From: Planctomycetota bacterium
GTDB taxonomy: Bacteria > Planctomycetota > GCA-002687715
Direction of reading: 5' to 3'
Length of the DNA: 33,428 bases
Assembly: GCA_013213915.1 (NCBI GenBank)
Contig: JABSRK010000007.1
Location: 1 to 33,428, forward strand
How positions within the stretch are numbered: the stretch's first letter is position 1; each line of letters opens with the position of its first letter. A program made the position numbers and the translations under genes. Positions 3,625 through 25,068 of the stretch are shown piece after piece. The notes under the pieces were generated by a model. It searched no databases and was not told the origin of the DNA. It was given only the letters and a program-made list of their open reading frames with translations.

Positions 3625-3864
3625 ATGCGCCCCATGGCCCGCCGTGGATGCATCCTGGCCATCGCCATGCTCGTGGCGATCGCCATGGGACCGGGAGTCG
3701 GTCTCTATCTCGTGAATCCGGATCTGGATGATCCGGAGCCCCGGGTCGCCGCGCTCGGCACCCCGGTCCTGATCCTCTGGGCGCTGGGCTGGCTGGCTGT
3801 CCAGCTGACCATCGTCGTCATCGCGTACCGGACCGTCTGGACAGACGAGGAGAGCGACGGATGA
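3625..3864 (+). CDS. small two-TM membrane protein, DUF3311-like accessory subunit of the downstream symporter
   Basis: Internal ATG at 3625 of ORF 3520..3864. The product has two hydrophobic helices (CILAIAMLVAIAMGPGVGLYLV and VLILWALGWLAVQLTIVVIAY). Its stop overlaps the symporter start as ATGA. The long N-terminal extension in the ORF track looks non-coding. Confidence 0.55.
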   Translation: MRPMARRGCILAIAMLVAIAMGPGVGLYLVNPDLDDPEPRVAALGTPVLILWALGWLAVQLTIVVIAYRTVWTDEESDG

Positions 3865-5441
3865 CCGTTCAACTCGCCACCCTCATTGTCTACCTGCTGG
3901 TGCTGGTGGGCATCGGCCTCGTGGGCTTCCGGCGCTCCAAGCTCACCGAGGAGGACTACTACCTGGCCGGCCGCGGGCAGGGTCTCTTGACGACGGCCCT
4001 CACCATCATGGCGACCATGTTCTCGGCCGCAGCGATCCTGGGGCTGCCGGGAGCCGCATACAGGGACGGCGTCGCGTTCCTGTTCTTCGCGCTGAACCTG
4101 CCGCTCACCGGGTGCCTGGTGTATGTGCTCGGGAGCAAGATCCGCAAGCTCGGCGCCGAGCGCGGTTACGTGACACCGGCCGATCTGGTCGCGGACCACT
4201 ACGGAGGCTCCCACTTCGTACGCCTGATGGTCGCGCTCTGCGGGTTCCTGTTCGTCGTTCCCTACATCGTCATGCAGATCAAGGGCGGCGGGTTCCTGGC
4301 CAAGACGGTGTTCGCCACCGAGGGCAACGCCGAGGAGATCTTTGACACAGGCGCGCTGTTGATGACGGTCGTCACGGTGGGCTACGTGCTGTTGGGCGGC
4401 ATGCGATCCGTCGCCTGGACGGACGTGATCCAGGGCACGCTGATGATCGTCGGCATCTTCATCACGTGCATCGCCACCGTGGCCGCCATGGGCGGAATCT
4501 CGGGGTATCTCGAGAAGGTCTCCGCCCTGCCGCCGGAGGCGCTCTCGGTCCCCGGAGTGTCCAACAGCTACCCGCCGTTCAAGCTCATGACGCTGGCGCT
4601 GTTCGCGGGCGCCGCGTCCCTGGTGCAGCCGGGGCAGTGGATCCGCTTCTACGCGGCGCGCTCGCGGGCGACGCTGCGGCGTTCCGCCCTCGTGTTCTCC
4701 GTCGTCCTGCCGCTGGCGCTGATGGCATCCATGCTGGTTGGGCTCGGAGGCCGCGCCCTCTACCCACCAGAGGTCGTGAACGGCGAGGTCACAGCCCACG
4801 CCGTGATCGAGAAAAACGACCGCGTCGTGCTCCAGCTCATGGAAGACCACATCCCGGAACTCCTGGGCGGATTCGGCGTCGTGGTCCTCTCCCTCATCAC
4901 CGTAGGTGTGGTCGCCGCCACCATGAGCACGGCGGACAGCAATCTGCACGCCCTCGCCGCGGTGGTCACACGCGATGTCTACGACCGCTTCGTCCGACCC
5001 CAGGCGTCTGAACGGGAACGCGCCTGGGTCGGCCGCGGCGTCATCGTCGTCGTGGCCTTGCTAGCGCTGTGGCTGGTCCACCACGGCAACGCCGACCCGG
5101 ACTTCAAGCCCCTCAAGATGATCGCTGACCTGATGTTCCTCGCGATCGCGTTCTCCGCCCAGCTCTTGCCCGCGACCGTCGATGTGCTGTGGCTGAAGCG
5201 AGGGTCGGCCGCGGGCGCCGCGTGGGGCATGGCCGCGGGGCTCGCCACGGTCTTCTGCTTCACACCCTTCGTCGCGTGGGACGGCGGGAAAGACATCAGC
5301 CGCAACTTGGACGTCGGGTTCGTTGGGATGGTGGTGAACGTGGCGGTGTTCGCCGCCGTCACGCTTCTCCGACGCGCTCCAGGTAGAGGTCCCGCCCCTC
5401 CCCCAGCGCCCCCATCTTCGCGTCAGCCACCTCAGGCGTGA
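3861..5441 (+). CDS. sodium:solute symporter (SSS) family transporter
   Basis: 526-aa polytopic membrane protein with the SSS N-terminal signature EEDYYLAGRGQG. It has about 13 hydrophobic segments. Its start is translationally coupled to the small upstream membrane ORF. Confidence 0.85.
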   Translation: MTVQLATLIVYLLVLVGIGLVGFRRSKLTEEDYYLAGRGQGLLTTALTIMATMFSAAAILGLPGAAYRDGVAFLFFALNLPLTGCLVYVLGSKIRKLGAERGYVTPADLVADHYGGSHFVRLMVALCGFLFVVPYIVMQIKGGGFLAKTVFATEGNAEEIFDTGALLMTVVTVGYVLLGGMRSVAWTDVIQGTLMIVGIFITCIATVAAMGGISGYLEKVSALPPEALSVPGVSNSYPPFKLMTLALFAGAASLVQPGQWIRFYAARSRATLRRSALVFSVVLPLALMASMLVGLGGRALYPPEVVNGEVTAHAVIEKNDRVVLQLMEDHIPELLGGFGVVVLSLITVGVVAATMSTADSNLHALAAVVTRDVYDRFVRPQASERERAWVGRGVIVVVALLALWLVHHGNADPDFKPLKMIADLMFLAIAFSAQLLPATVDVLWLKRGSAAGAAWGMAAGLATVFCFTPFVAWDGGKDISRNLDVGFVGMVVNVAVFAAVTLLRRAPGRGPAPPPAPPSSRQPPQA

Positions 5442-6360
5442 GCATCCAGAAGCCGCAGTCCGGATGAACCCAGCAAACGCGGTCTGCGCCGAGGACGTTG
5501 ACGGCGGCCGCGATGCGGTCGGCGACCTCCGCCGGGGTCTCGACCCGTGCATCCTTGATGTCGATGACGCCGATGCCGAGCCCCAGGTCGTCCCGCAGAG
5601 GACGCAGTTGCTCGAGCTCGGCCGGATCGCGCCGCGCCGTCTCCAGGACCAGGTGGTCGGCGTGAAGCGCGTCGAGATGGGGGACCAGGTCCTTCCAGAA
5701 CCCCTCCTGGATGGTCTTGCCTCCGTAGTTCCCGAAGCAGAGGTGCACACCGCACTCACCGGGCGCCGCGTCGAGGACCACGTTCATGGTCTCCACCGCC
5801 CACGACGCGTCCTCGGGGTGCCCCGTGAGATTCGCCTCGTCGACCTGCACCACCGCCGCCGGGACCTCGCGTACCGCATCTGCGAGGGCATCCGCAATGG
5901 CGAACGTGAGTGCATGCAGGTCGCCGTAGTGCGCGTCCATGAGGGTCTTGGCGAGCATGTACGGCGACGTCAGCGTGAGCTTGACCGGATGCTCCGTAAG
6001 GTCCTGGGCCAGGTGCCAGGCGGCGGCGAGATCGAGGGATCCGCGCCCGATCGGTCCGCGAACGATGCCTGGAGGACGGCGTCGGAACGTGACACCCTCC
6101 CGCGCAGCAAACGCCGCGGCCTCCGCATCTGTGATGTCGGTGGCGACGCCGTCGAGGGGCACGACGAACGTCTCGATCATGCCGTTCGTCTCGGGGTGGG
6201 AGGGGTCGAAGCGCAGTAGCTCCCCGTCGGTGACGACGTCGATGCCGCAGTCTTCCTGCGTCCGGAGCAGTGACGCCAGGGCCCCACCCAGGGACGCCTC
6301 GGTGAGGCCCCCTGGCGCCGGATAGGAGCCGACGACGGTCGTGCGCGGCACGCCGGTCAC
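5359..6360 (-). CDS. cobalamin-independent methionine synthase (MetE C-terminal domain)-like methyltransferase, short form
   Basis: 333-aa ORF with a GTG start that overlaps the apaH stop (GTGA). It begins TTVVGSYP and carries MetE-like zinc-ligand contexts (VHLCFGNYGG and VHPDCGFW). Confidence 0.7.
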   Translation of the reverse strand: MTGVPRTTVVGSYPAPGGLTEASLGGALASLLRTQEDCGIDVVTDGELLRFDPSHPETNGMIETFVVPLDGVATDITDAEAAAFAAREGVTFRRRPPGIVRGPIGRGSLDLAAAWHLAQDLTEHPVKLTLTSPYMLAKTLMDAHYGDLHALTFAIADALADAVREVPAAVVQVDEANLTGHPEDASWAVETMNVVLDAAPGECGVHLCFGNYGGKTIQEGFWKDLVPHLDALHADHLVLETARRDPAELEQLRPLRDDLGLGIGVIDIKDARVETPAEVADRIAAAVNVLGADRVCWVHPDCGFWMLTPEVADAKMGALGEGRDLYLERVGEA

Positions 6361-7163
6361 TCCTCCGCGGCCGGAACCTGGAACACGGCGCGATCGTCGA
6401 GACGCAGCGCGGTGAGGTGGCGCCCGTAGACGCAGCCAGAGTCGAGCGCCACTACGCCGTCAGCCATGTGAAGGCCGAGCGTCGACCAGTGACCGAACAG
6501 CAGCGTCTCCTTGCGCTCGGGGCGCCCCGGTGCGAGGAACCATGGGACCGCGTCCCCTGCGTCTCCCCAGCCGGGCCCGAGATGACCCTGCGTAGATGCG
6601 CCGTCGGGCGTTACGTACCGAAGCTGCGTCAGCCCGTGAACGATCGCCGAGAACCTCTCGTGACCCGTCAGCGACGGGTCCCACGCCGACGGAGAGTCTC
6701 GGTACGTCGCGCCGAGCGCGTCGGTCCAGTCGTCAGCTCTCAACATCGCCTCGGCCTCACTGGCACAGGCCAGCGCATCGTCGATGCTCCAGGATGGCCA
6801 CAGTCCGGCGTGGACCATCAGCCAACCGTCCTGCCGGTGGGCGAACGGTCGATGGCGGAGCCAATCGAGCAGCTCGTCACGATCCGACGCCTTCAGCGTC
6901 TTTTTGAACGTGTCACGATCCCTCTTCTCGCGCAGACCATGGCCGGCGGCCAGCAGGTGAAGATCGTGGTTGCCCAGCACCATGACGATGCAGTCCTGGT
7001 GGTCCTTCATCCAACGCAGGACTTTCAGGCTCTTGGGGCCGCGATTGACGACGTCGCCCACGACCCAGAGCACGTCGACGCCGGGATCGAAGGCGACGTG
7101 ATCGAGCAGGCGGCTGAAAGAGTCGTAGCAGCCTTGGATATCTCCGACCGCGTAGGTGGCCAT
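6357..7163 (-). CDS. apaH: symmetrical bis(5'-nucleosyl)-tetraphosphatase (ApaH)
   Basis: From internal ATG 7163 the product reads MATYAVGDIQGCYDSFSRLLDHV...LWVVGDVVNRGPKSLKVLRWM...VLGNHDLHLL. These are the metallophosphoesterase GDxxGC, GDxxNRG and GNHD motifs in ApaH order. The 83 codons upstream in the ORF track look non-coding. Confidence 0.85.
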   Translation of the reverse strand: MATYAVGDIQGCYDSFSRLLDHVAFDPGVDVLWVVGDVVNRGPKSLKVLRWMKDHQDCIVMVLGNHDLHLLAAGHGLREKRDRDTFKKTLKASDRDELLDWLRHRPFAHRQDGWLMVHAGLWPSWSIDDALACASEAEAMLRADDWTDALGATYRDSPSAWDPSLTGHERFSAIVHGLTQLRYVTPDGASTQGHLGPGWGDAGDAVPWFLAPGRPERKETLLFGHWSTLGLHMADGVVALDSGCVYGRHLTALRLDDRAVFQVPAAEE

Positions 7164-15480: not shown

Positions 15481-16788
<1,308 letters not shown>

Positions 16789-16817
16789 GAAACGTCTCCG
16801 TGAGGTGCGGTGCCGAC

Positions 16818-18449
16818 TCAGCCGTCGGTGGTGAGGAAGGGCCGGAGTTCCGGCTCCAAGAAGAGGGCCTCCGCGCGCCGACGCGCGAGGGCGAAGAGGC
16901 GAATCTGGTCGCGGACGGGTTGCTCAGGTTGCTCGGGCATTTGATCCCGGACCTTCCTCGCGATGGCGAGAAGCTCCTGATCCAGTACGTGCCGAACGAG
17001 GCTGGGGGTAACCACGGCCCCGTCGTCGAGGCGCACGCGATGACGCAACCACTGCCACGTCTGCGCGCGTGAGATCTCGAGCGTCGCCAGGTCTTCCATG
17101 AGGCCGTCCCACGCGACGCACCCCTTGCCCTCGCTCCACCCCTTCAGGTAAGCGATGGCGACGGCGGCGTTCTTGCGGAGGCCTCCGATGCTGCGGGGCC
17201 CGGTCGCCTCGGGCAACAGTTCGGCTTCCGTTGGCGAAACCGGAAGCACGTCGAGCTGGTGGTCGTTTTCGAACGCCGACAGCGCGGGTCCGATGAAGTA
17301 CGGGTGCGAAACCCAGCAGCCGTCGTGGCCCATGGTGGCCTCGAGGTGCTTGTCCAAGACGACCTTTTGCGTCTGTTCCTCGCGTGTCGCGGCGTCGTTT
17401 CCCGGCGTGAAGGCGGCCATGCCACCCATGGCGAATGCCCCATGACGGTGACAGACGTGGATCAGCCGGCGGGCGTAGGCGCTCATCCAGGGGCGGTCCA
17501 TGCCGATGCTGCCGCGATCGGCGAGCACGCGGTCAGGATGCTCCCGCAGGACCTTGATGTCGCTGAAGATCTTGTCCCAACGTCCGACGTTGAGGGCGGC
17601 CGCGCGCGTGCGCAGCTCGTAGAGGATCTCTTCGACCTGCATGGCGGCAGGCAGCGTCTCAATCAAGAACGTCGCCCTGATGGCACCGGTCTTCAATTCG
17701 AGTCCTTCCTCGACCAGATTGAACAGGCGGTTCCACCACCGCGCCTCCTTGAAGTGCTCGCACTTGGGAACGTAGATCTTGGGCGTCTTGCCCTGGGCGA
17801 TGAGCTCCCGCGCGGTGTGGTACGCGGTGAGTACGAGGTCGAAGATCCCGGCGGCGATGGGCTCTCCATCGACGATTATGTTCGCCTCGTCTATGTGGAG
17901 ACCACAGACCAGGACCATGAGCAACGGCATATCGTCGCGGTTGATCCGGTACGTCTTGCCGGGACGTTCCACCGTGAGGTCGCCACGGGCGGCGAGGGTG
18001 AGGTTCTCGAAACCGAGCAGCACGTTCTCCCACGTCGGCTTCATCGAGTCCTCGAAATCGAGCATGGCCGCATCGGACATGTGGCCGTCGGCGCCGCGGC
18101 TCAACATGTTGATGACCATCTTCGGGTCGCTGATGGGCCCGGTGATCTCGACGCGGCGACGCATCAGATCCTGAGGCAACTCCGCCACGCGCCAGTCGCC
18201 ACGCGCTTCCACCGGAGCGTCCACTGGACGACCGGGGAGCTCGCCCGCATCCCACGCGTCCTGACGGCGCTTGCGGTCCTCGAGCAGAACCCGGCGGTCG
18301 CTCGCCAGGGCGCGATGAGCCGTCAGGAGCAGGTCTCGAGCCTCGGCGGGTAGAAGGCGGGCCACGCGGAGGGCATCGGAGGGATCGCCCACGGTGAGTC
18401 CATGGAGGCGCGGGAGTGCAGACGCGGCGGAGGGGGGCGGCGGGGTCAT
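16818..18449 (-). CDS. aceB: malate synthase A
   Basis: Contains [35 protein letters not shown] and [17 protein letters not shown]. It ends 29 nt upstream of aceA. I prefer ATG 18449 over the TTG at 18545 used by the ORF track, but the start is uncertain. Confidence 0.9.
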
Positions 18450-18499
18450 GGCAGGCGTAATCCAGAGCAGGGAACCGGAAAGCGCGGGCAGCGATCCGT

Positions 18500-18527
18500 G
18501 TGTTTTAGTAACGTGAGAATAGAACAC
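18500..18527. promoter_or_regulatory. AT-rich imperfect palindrome in the aceB / regulator divergent intergenic region (candidate operator)
   Basis: GTGTTTTA-N12-TAGAACAC, with 7 of 8 arm positions complementary. It lies in the most AT-rich patch of an otherwise GC-rich spacer. Confidence 0.3.
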
Positions 18528-18587
18528 GTCAGCCCGGCTGGTCAAGCGAAACTTCGCCAGACGCGTAAGTTCGCTTGGCGGGTTCCT

Positions 18588-20134: not shown

Positions 20135-21349
20135 TCAGCCACGCTTCGCCTGCAGATTTTCGTCCAGCTTCGCCAGGAAATCCTGGGTGTTGAGGAACTG
20201 GGTATCCCCCCCCACCAGCAGCGCCAGGTCCTTGGTCATGTGACCCGACTCGACGGTCTCAACGCAAACGGCTTCCAGATCGGCCGCGAACTCCTGTAGC
20301 TCGAGGTTGCCGTCCTGACGCCCTCGGTAGGCGAGGCCGCGCGTCCACGCGAAGATCGAGGCGATGGGGTTGGTCGAGGTCTGGTTGCCCTTCTGATGCT
20401 CGCGATAGTGCCGCGTGACGGTGCCGTGCGCGGCCTCGGCTTCGACACAGTTGCCGTCCGGCGTCATGAGCACGGACGTCATCAGGCCCAGGGAGCCGAA
20501 GCCCTGCGCAACGGTGTCCGACTGCACGTCGCCGTCGTAATTCTTGCACGCCCAGATGAACCCGCCGCTCCACTTCATGACCTGCGCGACCATGTCGTCG
20601 ATGAGCCGGTGCTCGTACGTGATTCCCACATCCTCGAACGCGGGCCGGAACTCGGCGTCGAAGACATCCTGGAAGATGTCCTTGAAGCGACCGTCGTACC
20701 GCTTGAGGATCGTGTTCTTCGTGGACAGGTAGACGGGCCACTGCCGCTGGATCCCGTAATTCAGGCACGCACGCGCGAAGCCGCGGATGGACTCGTCCAG
20801 GTTGTACATGCCCATGGCGATGCCGGGCTCACTGAAGTCCATGACCTCGTAGGTCTGCGGGTCAGTCCCGTCCGCCGGCTCAAACGTCATCGTCAGCTTC
20901 CCGGGACCGGGCACGAGAAAGTCCGTCGCCCGATACTGATCGCCATGAGCGTGACGACCGATGACCATCGTGTTCGTCCATCCCGGCACCAGCCGCGGGA
21001 CGTTCTTGCAGATGATGGGTTCGCGAAAGACCGTTCCACCCAGGATGTTGCGGATCGTACCGTTGGGAGATCGCCACATCTCCTTGAGACCGAACTCCTC
21101 GACGCGCTCCTCGTCCGGAGTAATGGTCGCGCACTTGACCCCGACTCCGTGCTCCTTGATCGCGTTGGCCGAGTCGATGGTGATCTGGTCGTCGGTCTCG
21201 TCCCGCTTCTCGATGCCGAGGTCGTAGTACAGGAGCTCGACGTCCACATACGGGAGGATCAGGCGGTCCTTTATGAACGCCCAGATGATCCGGGTCATCT
21301 CGTCGCCATCGAGCTCGACGATGGGGTTCGCAACTTTGATCTTGCTCAT
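20135..21349 (-). CDS. icd: NADP-dependent isocitrate dehydrogenase, eukaryote-like type II (about 400 aa)
   Basis: 404-aa ORF beginning [23 protein letters not shown]. It also contains [40 protein letters not shown], characteristic of the IDH1/IDH2-like subfamily. Confidence 0.95.
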
Positions 21350-22448: not shown

Positions 22449-22627
22449 GAGCCCCCACTTTAGCCCCGGTCTTGCCGGCGCGTCTCCGATCGCGGTCCTA
22501 CGCCCGTACCCGTACGATCGGGTTCTCCTCCGGCAAGCTCCTCGGGTGGTTGTCCGAAGACCGCAGCGCTCCCACGAAAGAACCGCTAACGCCGAACGTC
22601 AAGACGATATCCATGTGGAGGATCGTG

Positions 22628-23461
22628 ATGCACGGATCGAAGATAACGCTCGCGGTGATGGTCCTGAGCCTGCCCCTCACGGCACAGAACCCCAAGCAGG
22701 AGCCGCCAACCCAAGAATACGACAGTGCCTGGGCGCTGATCAGCGCCGAGCACGACAAGAACAAGGACGGCAAGGTCTCGGCGCGTGAATATTCGCGCGG
22801 GAAGGAGCGCTTCCAACGGCTCGACCGGAACGGCGACGGATCGGTCACGGCCCAGGATTTCGTCGGCAACGATCGCCGTCGCAATCGAGGACGTAGCCAG
22901 CGTCGACGCGAGGGCCTCATCCGCGCAAGAGCCCCCAAGGCCGGAGCGATGGCGCCCGCCTTCACTCTCAAGACGGTCGATGGCAAGAAGAAGGAGCGCC
23001 TCTCATCCTACAAGGGCAAGAAACCGGTGGCGCTCATCTTCGGGAGCTACACGTGACCTCCCTTCCGCAAGTCAGCCGGTCGGCTGGCGAAGTTGTTCGA
23101 GCAGCACAAGGACGACGTGCAGTTCTTCGTCGTCTACATCAAGGAGGCGCACGCGCTCGACAGCGCCCGCCCGAGCTCCGCACGGAATCAGCCGATCGTC
23201 CAGGAGCCCCTCACCTGGAAAGAACGCTCCAAGCTGGCCCAGCAATGCACGGCCGCCCTCGAGCTCGACCACATCCCGACCCTCATCGACGAAGTCAACG
23301 ACGGCGTCGGCACCAGATACGCCGCGTGGCCGGATCGCCTCTACCTGGTCAGCAAGAACGGCCGCATCGCCTACGCCGGCGGCGCCGGACCACGGGGGTT
23401 CAAGCCGGATGAACTCGGGGAAGCCATCCAAGCGGAGTTGAGCAAGCGAAAGAAGAAGTAG
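22628..23461 (+). CDS. secreted EF-hand / iodothyronine-deiodinase-like selenoprotein (TGA 23054-23056 read as selenocysteine)
   Basis: ORFs 22472..23056 and 23093..23461 share a frame and are separated only by TGA. The read-through product is PVALIFGSYT-U-PPFRKSAGRLAKLFEQHKDDVQFFVVYIKEAHALD...YAAWPDRLYLVSKNGRIAYAGGAGPRGF, which matches the deiodinase FGS(C/A)TUPPF active site and fold. GGAGGA lies 5 nt upstream of ATG 22628. The signal peptide is MHGSKITLAVMVLSLPLTAQ. Two EF-hand loops are present (DKNKDGKVSAREY and DRNGDGSVTAQDF). Confidence 0.8.
23071..23088 (+). promoter_or_regulatory. candidate bacterial SECIS hairpin (7-bp stem, GGUC tetraloop) 14 nt downstream of the in-frame UGA
   Basis: GUCAGCC-GGUC-GGCUGGC forms six Watson-Crick pairs plus one G-U pair. 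The apical loop GGUC is the same tetraloop as in the E. coli fdhF SECIS. The loop begins 21 nt after the UGA. Confidence 0.6.
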
Positions 23462-24091: not shown

Positions 24092-25068
24092 GAGATCTCG
24101 ATCTCGTCGTCCGCAGCAACCTGAAGTCGGGCCACCAGCGCCGCCGGGTCCCGCTCGCGCAACCACGAGCTCCGATCCGCGTCGGTGACCAGGCCTCCCG
24201 CTGTCCAGTAGCTCAGCAGCTGCTTGAGTCGGGCCGCGATGCCCTCGATCGTGCCGCTCCTCACCCCGCGCAGGTTGGCGGCGTACTCCAGGAGAAACCG
24301 CGCAGCGTCCTGGGAGGTCACCGCCTCCCCCGAGAAAATCCACGGATCCCCGAGCGCGGCGCGACCGACCATGACGAACGTACACCCGGTCTCGGTCTGC
24401 ATCCTGTCGATGTCGCCCGTGACGCGAACCCCGCCGTTGCCGCAGACGGGTATGGACACCGCGCCCACGGCGCGGCGGATGCGCGTCCAGTCAACCGGAT
24501 CTCGGTAGAGCTCCGCACGCGTGCGGCAGTGAACGGTCAGCATCGCCGCACCACCGGCCTCGACGGCGCGGGCGATCTCCTCGACCCCGTCGGCATCGTC
24601 CACACCCGCACGGACCTTGGCGGTCACCGGGACGCGCCCATCCACGGCCTCGACACACGCGCCGACCAACTGGGAGACCCTCGGCGGATCATCCAGTACG
24701 GCAGATCCCGCGCAGCCACGCAGCGCCCCCTTGGCCGGACAACCGAAGTTGAGGTCGATGACTGCGGCGCCCGCGGCGGCCGCGGTCGCGGCCGATGTCG
24801 CGACGAGCTCCACGTCGGCACCCATCAGCTGCACGCCGACGGGCATGGCCGAGCGCCGCGCTCCGAGGTGGCGTTGAATCACCGCAGCGGGCACGGCCTG
24901 CGACGTCACGCGCACGAATTCCGTAAAGACGCCCCCCAGTCGCTCAGGCCGGTGGCGGGTCATCACCACGTCCCTGAACGCAGGGTCCGTCACGCCCTCC
25001 ATGGGCGCGAGCAGGACCGGCGCCGTGAAGGGCAACCCGGATAGAACTCTGGGATTGATCTTGGCCAC
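24088..25068 (-). CDS. dus: tRNA-dihydrouridine synthase
   Basis: 326-aa ORF with a GTG start. It contains LLAPMEGVTDPAFRDV, IDLNFGCPA and a TIM-barrel Dus-like pattern (VTAKVRAG, LTVHCRTR, IPVCGNGG). Confidence 0.9.
   Translation of the reverse strand: MAKINPRVLSGLPFTAPVLLAPMEGVTDPAFRDVVMTRHRPERLGGVFTEFVRVTSQAVPAAVIQRHLGARRSAMPVGVQLMGADVELVATSAATAAAAGAAVIDLNFGCPAKGALRGCAGSAVLDDPPRVSQLVGACVEAVDGRVPVTAKVRAGVDDADGVEEIARAVEAGGAAMLTVHCRTRAELYRDPVDWTRIRRAVGAVSIPVCGNGGVRVTGDIDRMQTETGCTFVMVGRAALGDPWIFSGEAVTSQDAARFLLEYAANLRGVRSGTIEGIAARLKQLLSYWTAGGLVTDADRSSWLRERDPAALVARLQVAADDEIEIS

Follow-up and report, generated by a model that had tools for sequence, protein, structure and literature searches.

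Introduction

Deiodinase-like selenoproteins of bacteria, together with a selenocysteine insertion sequence (SECIS), were described in 2005 from the Sargasso Sea, with four sequences and one SECIS drawn (Figure 7a of PMC1088965). The same family was reported in 2008 from the Global Ocean Sampling (GOS) data, with 22 selenocysteine (Sec) and 21 Cys sequences (PMC2398784). The criterion for a bacterial SECIS was a small apical loop with a conserved G (PMC1088965). Here we analyzed a stretch of 33,428 nucleotides of a Planctomycetota bacterium (contig JABSRK010000007.1, positions 1–33,428; the whole stretch is called the window below). It contains a gene of this family with an in-frame TGA, and a hairpin downstream of the TGA, within the coding region, is very probably a bacterial SECIS (bSECIS).

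The window protein resembles the marine proteins of 2005 and 2008 in the domain PF00837, in the same putative active-site Sec, and in a downstream SECIS with a G in a small apical loop. The marine sets consisted of 4 and 22 read-level sequences with no organism assigned, whereas the window gene lies in a 33-kb chromosomal context. It also differs from them in having its nearest relatives in metagenome-assembled genomes (MAGs) of Planctomycetota, a signal peptide-like N-terminus with EF-hands, and a SECIS backed by family-wide covariation. The main text of PMC5029168 mentioned neither Planctomycetes nor deiodinase. The signal type and the gene family are already known, family and SECIS having been published in 2005, and the window gene is a well-supported, ordinary case.

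The SECIS of Escherichia coli fdhF resembles the window element in being a hairpin 3′ of an in-frame UGA in the coding region, with an upper stem and an identical GGUC tetraloop. The bulged U of the fdhF stem (U17) is a feature of E. coli-type elements and is not known to belong to the general bacterial consensus. The SECIS of Moorella thermoacetica fdhA, which was used in co-crystals with the winged-helix domain of SelB, has a GC-rich stem and a G-G-U-C loop. The window element is like it in both respects and belongs to a different gene. In fdhF, the G and U of the loop are the contacts for SelB, as known from the work of Böck, Fourmy and Yoshizawa.

In eukaryotes, SECISs are kink-turn structures in the 3′ untranslated region (UTR), which are read by way of SBP2 and eEFSec. 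In bacteria, thyroid hormone would not be expected as a substrate. The vertebrate deiodinases DIO1–3 have a catalytic domain homologous to that of the window protein, with Sec at the same position, and differ in using a eukaryotic SECIS in the 3′ UTR, not a coding-region hairpin for SelB (the two types are contrasted in PMC1088965).

Results

A GGUC hairpin downstream of the in-frame TGA

The segment from 23054 to 23092 (+ strand) reads TGA CCT CCC TTC CGC AAG TCA GCC GGT CGG CTG GCG AAG. It starts with the in-frame UGA (23054–23056), the putative Sec codon of the active-site motif FGSYT-U-PPF. The 5′ arm of the upper stem is GUCAGCC (23071–23077), made up of the last base of the Lys codon and the Ser and Ala codons. 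It is followed by the apical tetraloop GGUC (23078–23081), which comprises the Gly codon GGU and the first base of the Arg codon, and by the 3′ arm GGCUGGC (23082–23088), which covers the remainder of the Arg codon, the Leu codon and the first bases of the Ala codon. The stem consists of seven pairs, one of them U-G, uninterrupted and with no bulge. It starts 14 nt after the TGA, and the loop 21 nt after it, at +25 to +28. An earlier note on this DNA had described such a stem, loop and distances, and all its coordinates agreed with the sequence. The hairpin also overlies coding sequence as that note had stated, with the arms and loop falling in Lys-Ser-Ala-Gly-Arg-Leu-Ala codons.

The hairpin was present in both the minimum free energy (MFE) and the centroid structures computed by RNAfold in contexts of 41, 47 and 61 nt. 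The 18-nt hairpin alone had a folding energy of −10.8 kcal/mol (z = −4.15), which was equalled by 1 of 200 shuffles. The MFE structure also contained a possible lower helix, in which CUUC (23062–23065) pairs with GAAG (23089–23092). In the alignment of relatives described below, 70% of the cells of this lower helix paired, and the covariation was weak. Constraints on the Phe and Lys/Glu codons can explain its variation, and the lower helix was not retained as part of the element.

The E. coli fdhF segment used for comparison matched fdhF in 5420 of 5426 E. coli genomes. It folded with GGUC at +22 to +25, which agreed with the previous claim that the two loops are the same. The fdhF upper stem was weaker than that of the window (−4.2 versus −10.8 kcal/mol). 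The gap between UGA and loop was 18 nt in fdhF, and the first loop base in the family of the window gene stood at +21 or +25; the 21-nt gap fits a bacterial SECIS, as had been proposed. The UGA–loop range published with bSECISearch (Zhang and Gladyshev) is reportedly 16–37 nt. The host genes are unrelated: fdhF encodes a molybdopterin enzyme, and the window gene a thioredoxin-fold protein.

Hairpins with a GGTC tetraloop and a stem of at least 7 bp were found only four times in the window (both strands, 66.9 kb). When stems of at least 5 bp were counted in the window and related loci (about 1.0 Mb), 68 of 122 such hairpins sat at the in-frame TGA of the family, 64 at offset 24 and four at offset 20. 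Three other GGUC hairpins were judged to be due to chance. One of them, on the + strand at about 24777–24794, is antisense to the Dus gene. The other two, considered as SECISs of further selenoproteins in a search of the window and about 0.5 Mb of loci, had weak 5-bp stems (L022, 4573; L054, 4068).

The TGA at the catalytic position of a deiodinase-family protein

The complete selenoprotein gene (22628–23461, + strand) has 277 codons, with the putative Sec at codon 143 and a TAG stop at 23459–23461. The likely start, ATG at 22628, is preceded by GGAGGA at 22618–22623, and there is an alternative ATG at 22613. A single + strand frame crosses the TGA and runs 134 codons beyond it, and no other frame disruption was present in the gene.

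The Pfam model T4_deiodinase (PF00837) matched residues 109–269, spanning the TGA, with 82.6 bits against a cut-off of 27 bits (E = 3e-23). The closest solved structures were those of mouse Dio3 (4TR3, E = 6e-17) and Dio2 (9H48, E = 4e-13). The TGA aligned with the Cys of the mouse Dio3 catalytic-domain chain 4TR3, in which the motif is FGSCTCPPF in place of FGSYT-U-PPF. The 5′ half of the thioredoxin fold is encoded upstream of the TGA. In these alignments the TGA falls on the catalytic residue, Sec or Cys, of a thioredoxin-fold domain of the deiodinase family.

The best NCBIfam match was NF038285, ‘deiodinase family protein’ (E = 2.6e-61 over the catalytic domain). With 208 bits it stayed under the 250-bit cut-off of this hypothetical equivalog, and only positions 175–341 of 347 matched. 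The N-terminal architecture of NF038285 is unlike that of the window protein, and the C-terminal half of the model alone matches.

The N-terminus, as read off the sequence, is hydrophobic and signal-peptide-like. It is followed by EF-hand-like calcium-binding loops, DKNKDGKVSARE and DRNGDGSVTAQD (22754–22858, + strand), of which DRNGDGSVTAQD is the loop matched by Pfam (EF-hand_1/5/6, E-values 1e-6 to 2e-7). N-terminal EF-hands were also found in two orthologues (L015, 2194–3105; L022, 2221–3105). The signal-like N-terminus and the EF-hands suggest an exported, possibly calcium-dependent selenoenzyme. In other relatives (P0072, P0086 and P0120), EF-hands lie C-terminal to the deiodinase-like domain.

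Automatic gene calls cut the gene in two, a 142-aa EF-hand open reading frame (ORF) and a 122-aa T4_deiodinase ORF. The split-call regions are 22628–23056 and 23093–23461, and L086 and L088 are likewise listed. Among the 196 homologues in databases, C-terminal pieces of 106–140 aa predominate. The TGA is rendered as W in a few database entries (P0011, P0070), and the identical 122-aa fragment is present on 19 independent contigs.

Conservation and covariation in relatives

Relatives were collected by two scans, which together reported about 600 or more family members. From the genome scan 80 loci were read, mostly from Planctomycetota MAGs, with 46–76% protein identity, the closest being an Isosphaeraceae MAG. 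From the metagenome scan, which was run with a Cys-form alignment and aimed at more Cys controls, 79 loci were read (L091–L169).

The TGA was present at the same codon in 79 of the 80 genome loci and 77 of the 79 metagenome loci, or 156/159 overall. Almost all of the 80 genome relatives had a hairpin at this position. An uninterrupted stem of 6 bp or more was seen there in 88% of 150 distinct Sec forms, compared with 15% of 480 control windows taken from these genes. The loop was GGUC exactly at +25 in 63 of the 150 distinct Sec forms, and 138 of 146 family hairpins had a loop that was led by G or contained GG.

Covariation was examined in a gap-free alignment (A2) of 79 segments, each consisting of the TGA and 48 nt. 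In the helix columns 18–24/29–35, 87.9% of the cells were paired, and five of the seven pairs had changed on both sides. Column pair 24/29 was C-G in 61 and U-A in 11 segments, and column pair 23/30 was C-G in 63, U-A in 5 and U-G in 5. Column pair 19/34 was U-A in 51, U-G in 9, G-C in 8 and C-G in 5, and 18/35 was U-A in 30, G-C in 11 and C-G in 6. Changes on both sides amounted to 60 cells, compared with 25 ± 4 after shuffling, and none of 500 shuffles, which ignore phylogeny, reached 60. When the structure was slid by 1–3 columns, at most 27 both-side-changed cells were obtained. The RNAalifold consensus contained only the four innermost pairs. Sub-groups with a shifted register break the outer columns there, and explicit pair counting was used for this reason. 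The orthologue comparison proposed in the earlier note thus came out in favor of the hairpin: TGA-carrying orthologues keep it, with compensatory changes and suppressed synonymous variation.

Constraint on codons in the hairpin

The loop Gly codon was GGU in 70 of 76 cases, whereas GGU made up 15% of the 1274 Gly codons elsewhere in these genes. For Arg, CGG was used in 58/63, compared with 25% of CGN codons. Third-position entropy was 0.9, 0.7, 0.7 and 0.5 bit in codons +7 to +10, which cover the stem and loop, against 1.4–1.9 in most flanking codons, and this dip was confined to the hairpin codons.

Changes in the two arms were coupled. The synonymous change of Ala GCC to GCU always occurred with CGG to CAG, which replaces Arg by Gln (11/11). 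Val GUC was paired with CGA (four cases) and GUU with CAA (one case), and the Arg codon departed from CGG to CAG, CGA or CAA only where the facing Ala codon had changed to match. In other words, the replacements of R by Q and of A by V arose only with a pairing-restoring base change on the opposite side. Other peptides were found in place of S-A-G-R/Q-L in six of the eight Cys forms described below, and mouse Dio3 also has an unrelated peptide there. From the codon choice, the coupled changes and the entropy dip, it appears that the RNA has largely shaped the peptide S-A-G-R/Q-L, which seems to be kept for the RNA and not for the protein.

Cys forms

Eight homologues with TGC or TGT in place of the TGA were readable. 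The Cys-form proteins P0017, P0024, P0030, P0035, P0039 and P0041 aligned at the Sec position. Five Cys forms (L081, L082, L083, L090 and L156) were without a comparable hairpin and had other peptides there. Two of the eight, a small sample, had 6 bp or more in one uninterrupted stem.

Of the other three Cys forms, L084 and L085 have hairpins that resemble the type of the sister clade described below. L089 (137–175; P0042) has TGC followed by an intact CUCGGCC-GGUC-GGCUGAG hairpin and the peptide SSAGRL; it represents either a fossil SECIS left by a very recent replacement of Sec by Cys, or an error in base calling. The hairpins kept in these three are consistent with recent Sec-to-Cys change. 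Separately, the Cys-form locus L081 (1–888, P0017) adjoins selB, which is encoded on the other strand.

Link to the Sec machinery

A tRNA-Sec gene (anticodon UCA) was detected by ARAGORN 0–2.5 kb from the orthologue in six Planctomycetota loci, and these made up 6 of the 11 tRNA genes across all flanks. They lie at L012 5948–6044, L015 3621–3717, L018 3606–3702, L022 3505–3601, L028 1064–1160 and L029 1900–1994. In L015, from an Isosphaeraceae MAG, the order is the EF-hand/deiodinase-Sec gene, tRNA-Sec, SelA (3774–5162) and SelB (5159–6448). In L022 it is the deiodinase-Sec gene, tRNA-Sec, a 186-aa ORF and SelA. Because orthologues adjoin tRNA-Sec, selA and selB, the lineage is, as judged from its genes, Sec-competent, and we infer the same competence for the window organism itself.

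Register variants and paralogues

The position of the loop was not the same in all relatives. The GGUC loop was four bases nearer to the UGA in L053, L054, L059 and L075, for example in GCCGAUC-GGUC-GAUCGGC. A sister clade, consisting of L035, L063, L066, L067, L077 and most of the 77 TGA-carrying metagenome loci (mostly from soil and sediment), had a different element at TGA +14 to +30. Here a stem of 7 bp carries a triloop (GGC, GGU or GUC) at +21, which is equivalent to an A-GGY-U pentaloop. Its stem also covaried, with the arms GUGCCCA/UGGGCAC, GGCGCCA/UGGCGCC, GGCGUCA/UGACGCC, GGAGCCA/UGGCUCC and GGAACCA/UGGUUCC. This clade encodes RAQAGHL or RRQAGAL, not SAGRL. Counted over the Sec forms, the loops were GGUC at +25 (63), GGC at +21 (39), GGU at +21 (7), GUC at +21 (7) and GGUC at +21 (6).

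Two to three paralogous Sec copies were seen in several MAGs (L013/L033/L075 in one MAG; L064/L065; L002/L071; L045/L048). The registers of paralogues differed in one MAG, with the loop of L075 at +21 and those of L013 and L033 at +25. One Sec-form relative, L097, has an in-frame TAG in the SECIS region (TGA +16 to +18; RR*AGAL) with the pairing kept (GGCGCUA-GGC-UGGCGCC). It may be a pseudogene or an error.

Genomic context

TGA was the ordinary stop of 15 of the 23 likely genes of the window, and the commonest stop there. The genetic code is therefore standard and not reassigned. The rest of the window consists of housekeeping genes, including Hsp90, CstA, isocitrate lyase, malate synthase, isocitrate dehydrogenase (IDH), Dus and acetyl-CoA synthetase. 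The glyoxylate shunt genes for isocitrate lyase and malate synthase adjoin a helix-turn-helix (HTH)/IrrE-like (M78) regulator gene and the isocitrate dehydrogenase gene. This neighborhood (15481–18545 and 20135–21349, both on the − strand), directly upstream of the selenoprotein gene, is an ordinary chromosomal context.

Discussion

We are confident that the hairpin at 23071–23088 is a bSECIS within the coding region of a deiodinase-family selenoprotein gene. This reading was reached because the in-frame TGA is at the catalytic position, because the hairpin is conserved, covaries and constrains synonymous sites in about 150 Sec forms, because five of the eight Cys forms are without it, and because orthologues are linked to sel genes.

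The mechanism may be modelled on the established E. coli system. With the UGA at 23054–23056 in the A site, the hairpin 14 nt downstream would lie, still folded, where the mRNA enters the 30S subunit. SelB, carrying GTP and Sec-tRNA(Sec), would bind the GGUC loop through its C-terminal winged-helix domain. In competition with release factor 2, it would bring Sec-tRNA(Sec) into the A site, and Sec would become the catalytic residue of FGSYT-U-PPF. The ribosome would then melt the hairpin and translate S-A-G-R-L. By analogy with the E. coli system, we infer SelB binding and Sec insertion at the window gene.

Several observations weigh against the bSECIS reading. The hairpin in its context of 47–61 nt, with 66% G+C, was no more stable than its dinucleotide-shuffled versions (z = −0.03 and −0.27). 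In this test the genuine SECIS of fdhF was also unremarkable (z = −1.2), and for that reason context folding energy was dropped as a criterion. No Rfam family matched, either in the whole window at gathering thresholds or, for SECIS, at E ≤ 10 in 22950–23250. All that follows from this is that the curated models do not include such an element. The sole Rfam match, to mir-5681 on the minus strand (E = 0.087), was judged to be due to chance. The window loop, at +25 to +28, is 3 nt further from the UGA than that of fdhF at +22 to +25, and the bulged U17 of fdhF is absent from the 7-bp stem of the window. The 33-kb window contains no tRNA-Sec, selA, selB or selD, and no tRNA at all. The shuffle and binomial statistics ignore phylogeny, and three of only eight Cys controls (L084, L085 and L089) retain a hairpin.

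The hairpin might be a by-product of a need for S-A-G-R-L in the protein just after the active site, with no function in the RNA and with UGA decoding depending on something else. The peptide is conserved in the Sec forms nearest the window gene, and the context energy is unremarkable, as would suit this explanation. It is nevertheless very unlikely. The constraint falls on synonymous positions of the loop Gly and Arg codons, with the entropy dip at the stem and loop, and every replacement of R by Q or of A by V comes with the base change that re-forms the pair. The peptides at this place are unrelated in mouse Dio3 and in six of the eight Cys forms, and in the second clade a covarying hairpin with a G-rich loop goes together with another peptide (RAQAGHL or RRQAGAL). 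A reading of the TGA as a true stop, separating a 142-aa EF-hand gene from a 122-aa deiodinase fragment with an intercistronic or attenuator-like hairpin between them, is what the automatic annotation amounts to. The abundance of C-terminal fragments of 106–140 aa among database homologues and the frequent use of TGA as a stop in the window are on its side. We consider it highly improbable, as the Pfam deiodinase domain and the Dio3 alignment cross the TGA in one frame, with the TGA exactly on the catalytic residue. The downstream ORF alone would be without the active site, the 5′ half of its thioredoxin fold lying upstream of the TGA, and its supposed start is a TTG inside the domain at a position that is not conserved. 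The TGA is kept in 156/159 relatives, and no T-run follows the hairpin.

We regard as equally improbable that the UGA is recoded without SelB and SECIS, by a near-cognate Trp or Cys tRNA or by a reassigned code, with a hairpin that does no more than slow the ribosome and thereby favor read-through. Downstream structures can stimulate read-through in other systems, and W appears at this codon in some database entries (P0011, P0070). On the other hand, TGA terminates 15 of the 23 window genes, only Sec or Cys was seen at this position, and the orthologues are linked to tRNA-Sec, selA and selB. Moreover, the sequence of the loop (GGUC or GGY) is conserved as well as the stem, which is expected of a protein-binding site and not of a roadblock. 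The chance that the gene is a pseudogene, or that a Cys codon was misread as TGA in sequencing, is close to negligible. The close relative L089, with TGC and the same hairpin, shows that the two states are one base apart. Against such an error stand the identical 122-aa fragment on 19 independent contigs, the TGA in 156 of 159 independent relatives, and a gene free of further frame disruptions. The bSECIS reading was thus preferred over all of these.

Current understanding of Sec decoding is unchanged by this locus. Recognition of the SECIS restores one selenoprotein of 277 residues from an EF-hand ORF and a deiodinase fragment without its active site. The practical value is that it mends a widespread split-gene annotation, in the window gene and in most of its relatives. 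The register classes and the linkage to sel genes could improve bacterial SECIS models and help to choose a cognate SelB–SECIS pair. Fusion to EF-hands, a probable signal for export, almost exclusive use of Sec, the discrete registers and the synteny with selC-selA-selB are leads of modest interest, and none of them is a surprise.

For the biology of the family, it is a clear and clean case of RNA–protein dual coding, in which an RNA structure dictates protein sequence. As a broader and rather doubtful proposal, the Planctomycetota family might be an exported, EF-hand (calcium)-linked selenoenzyme, tied to selC-selA-selB and using almost only Sec, with discrete SECIS registers (GGUC at +25 or +21, and a GGY triloop at +21 in the sister clade). 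If that were true, there would be lineage-specific spacing rules for SelB and a protein sequence dictated by the RNA (SAGR/QL versus RAQAGHL), and the family would offer a natural system for mapping the co-evolution of SelB and SECIS. The family could then also be a main reason why these lineages keep the Sec trait.

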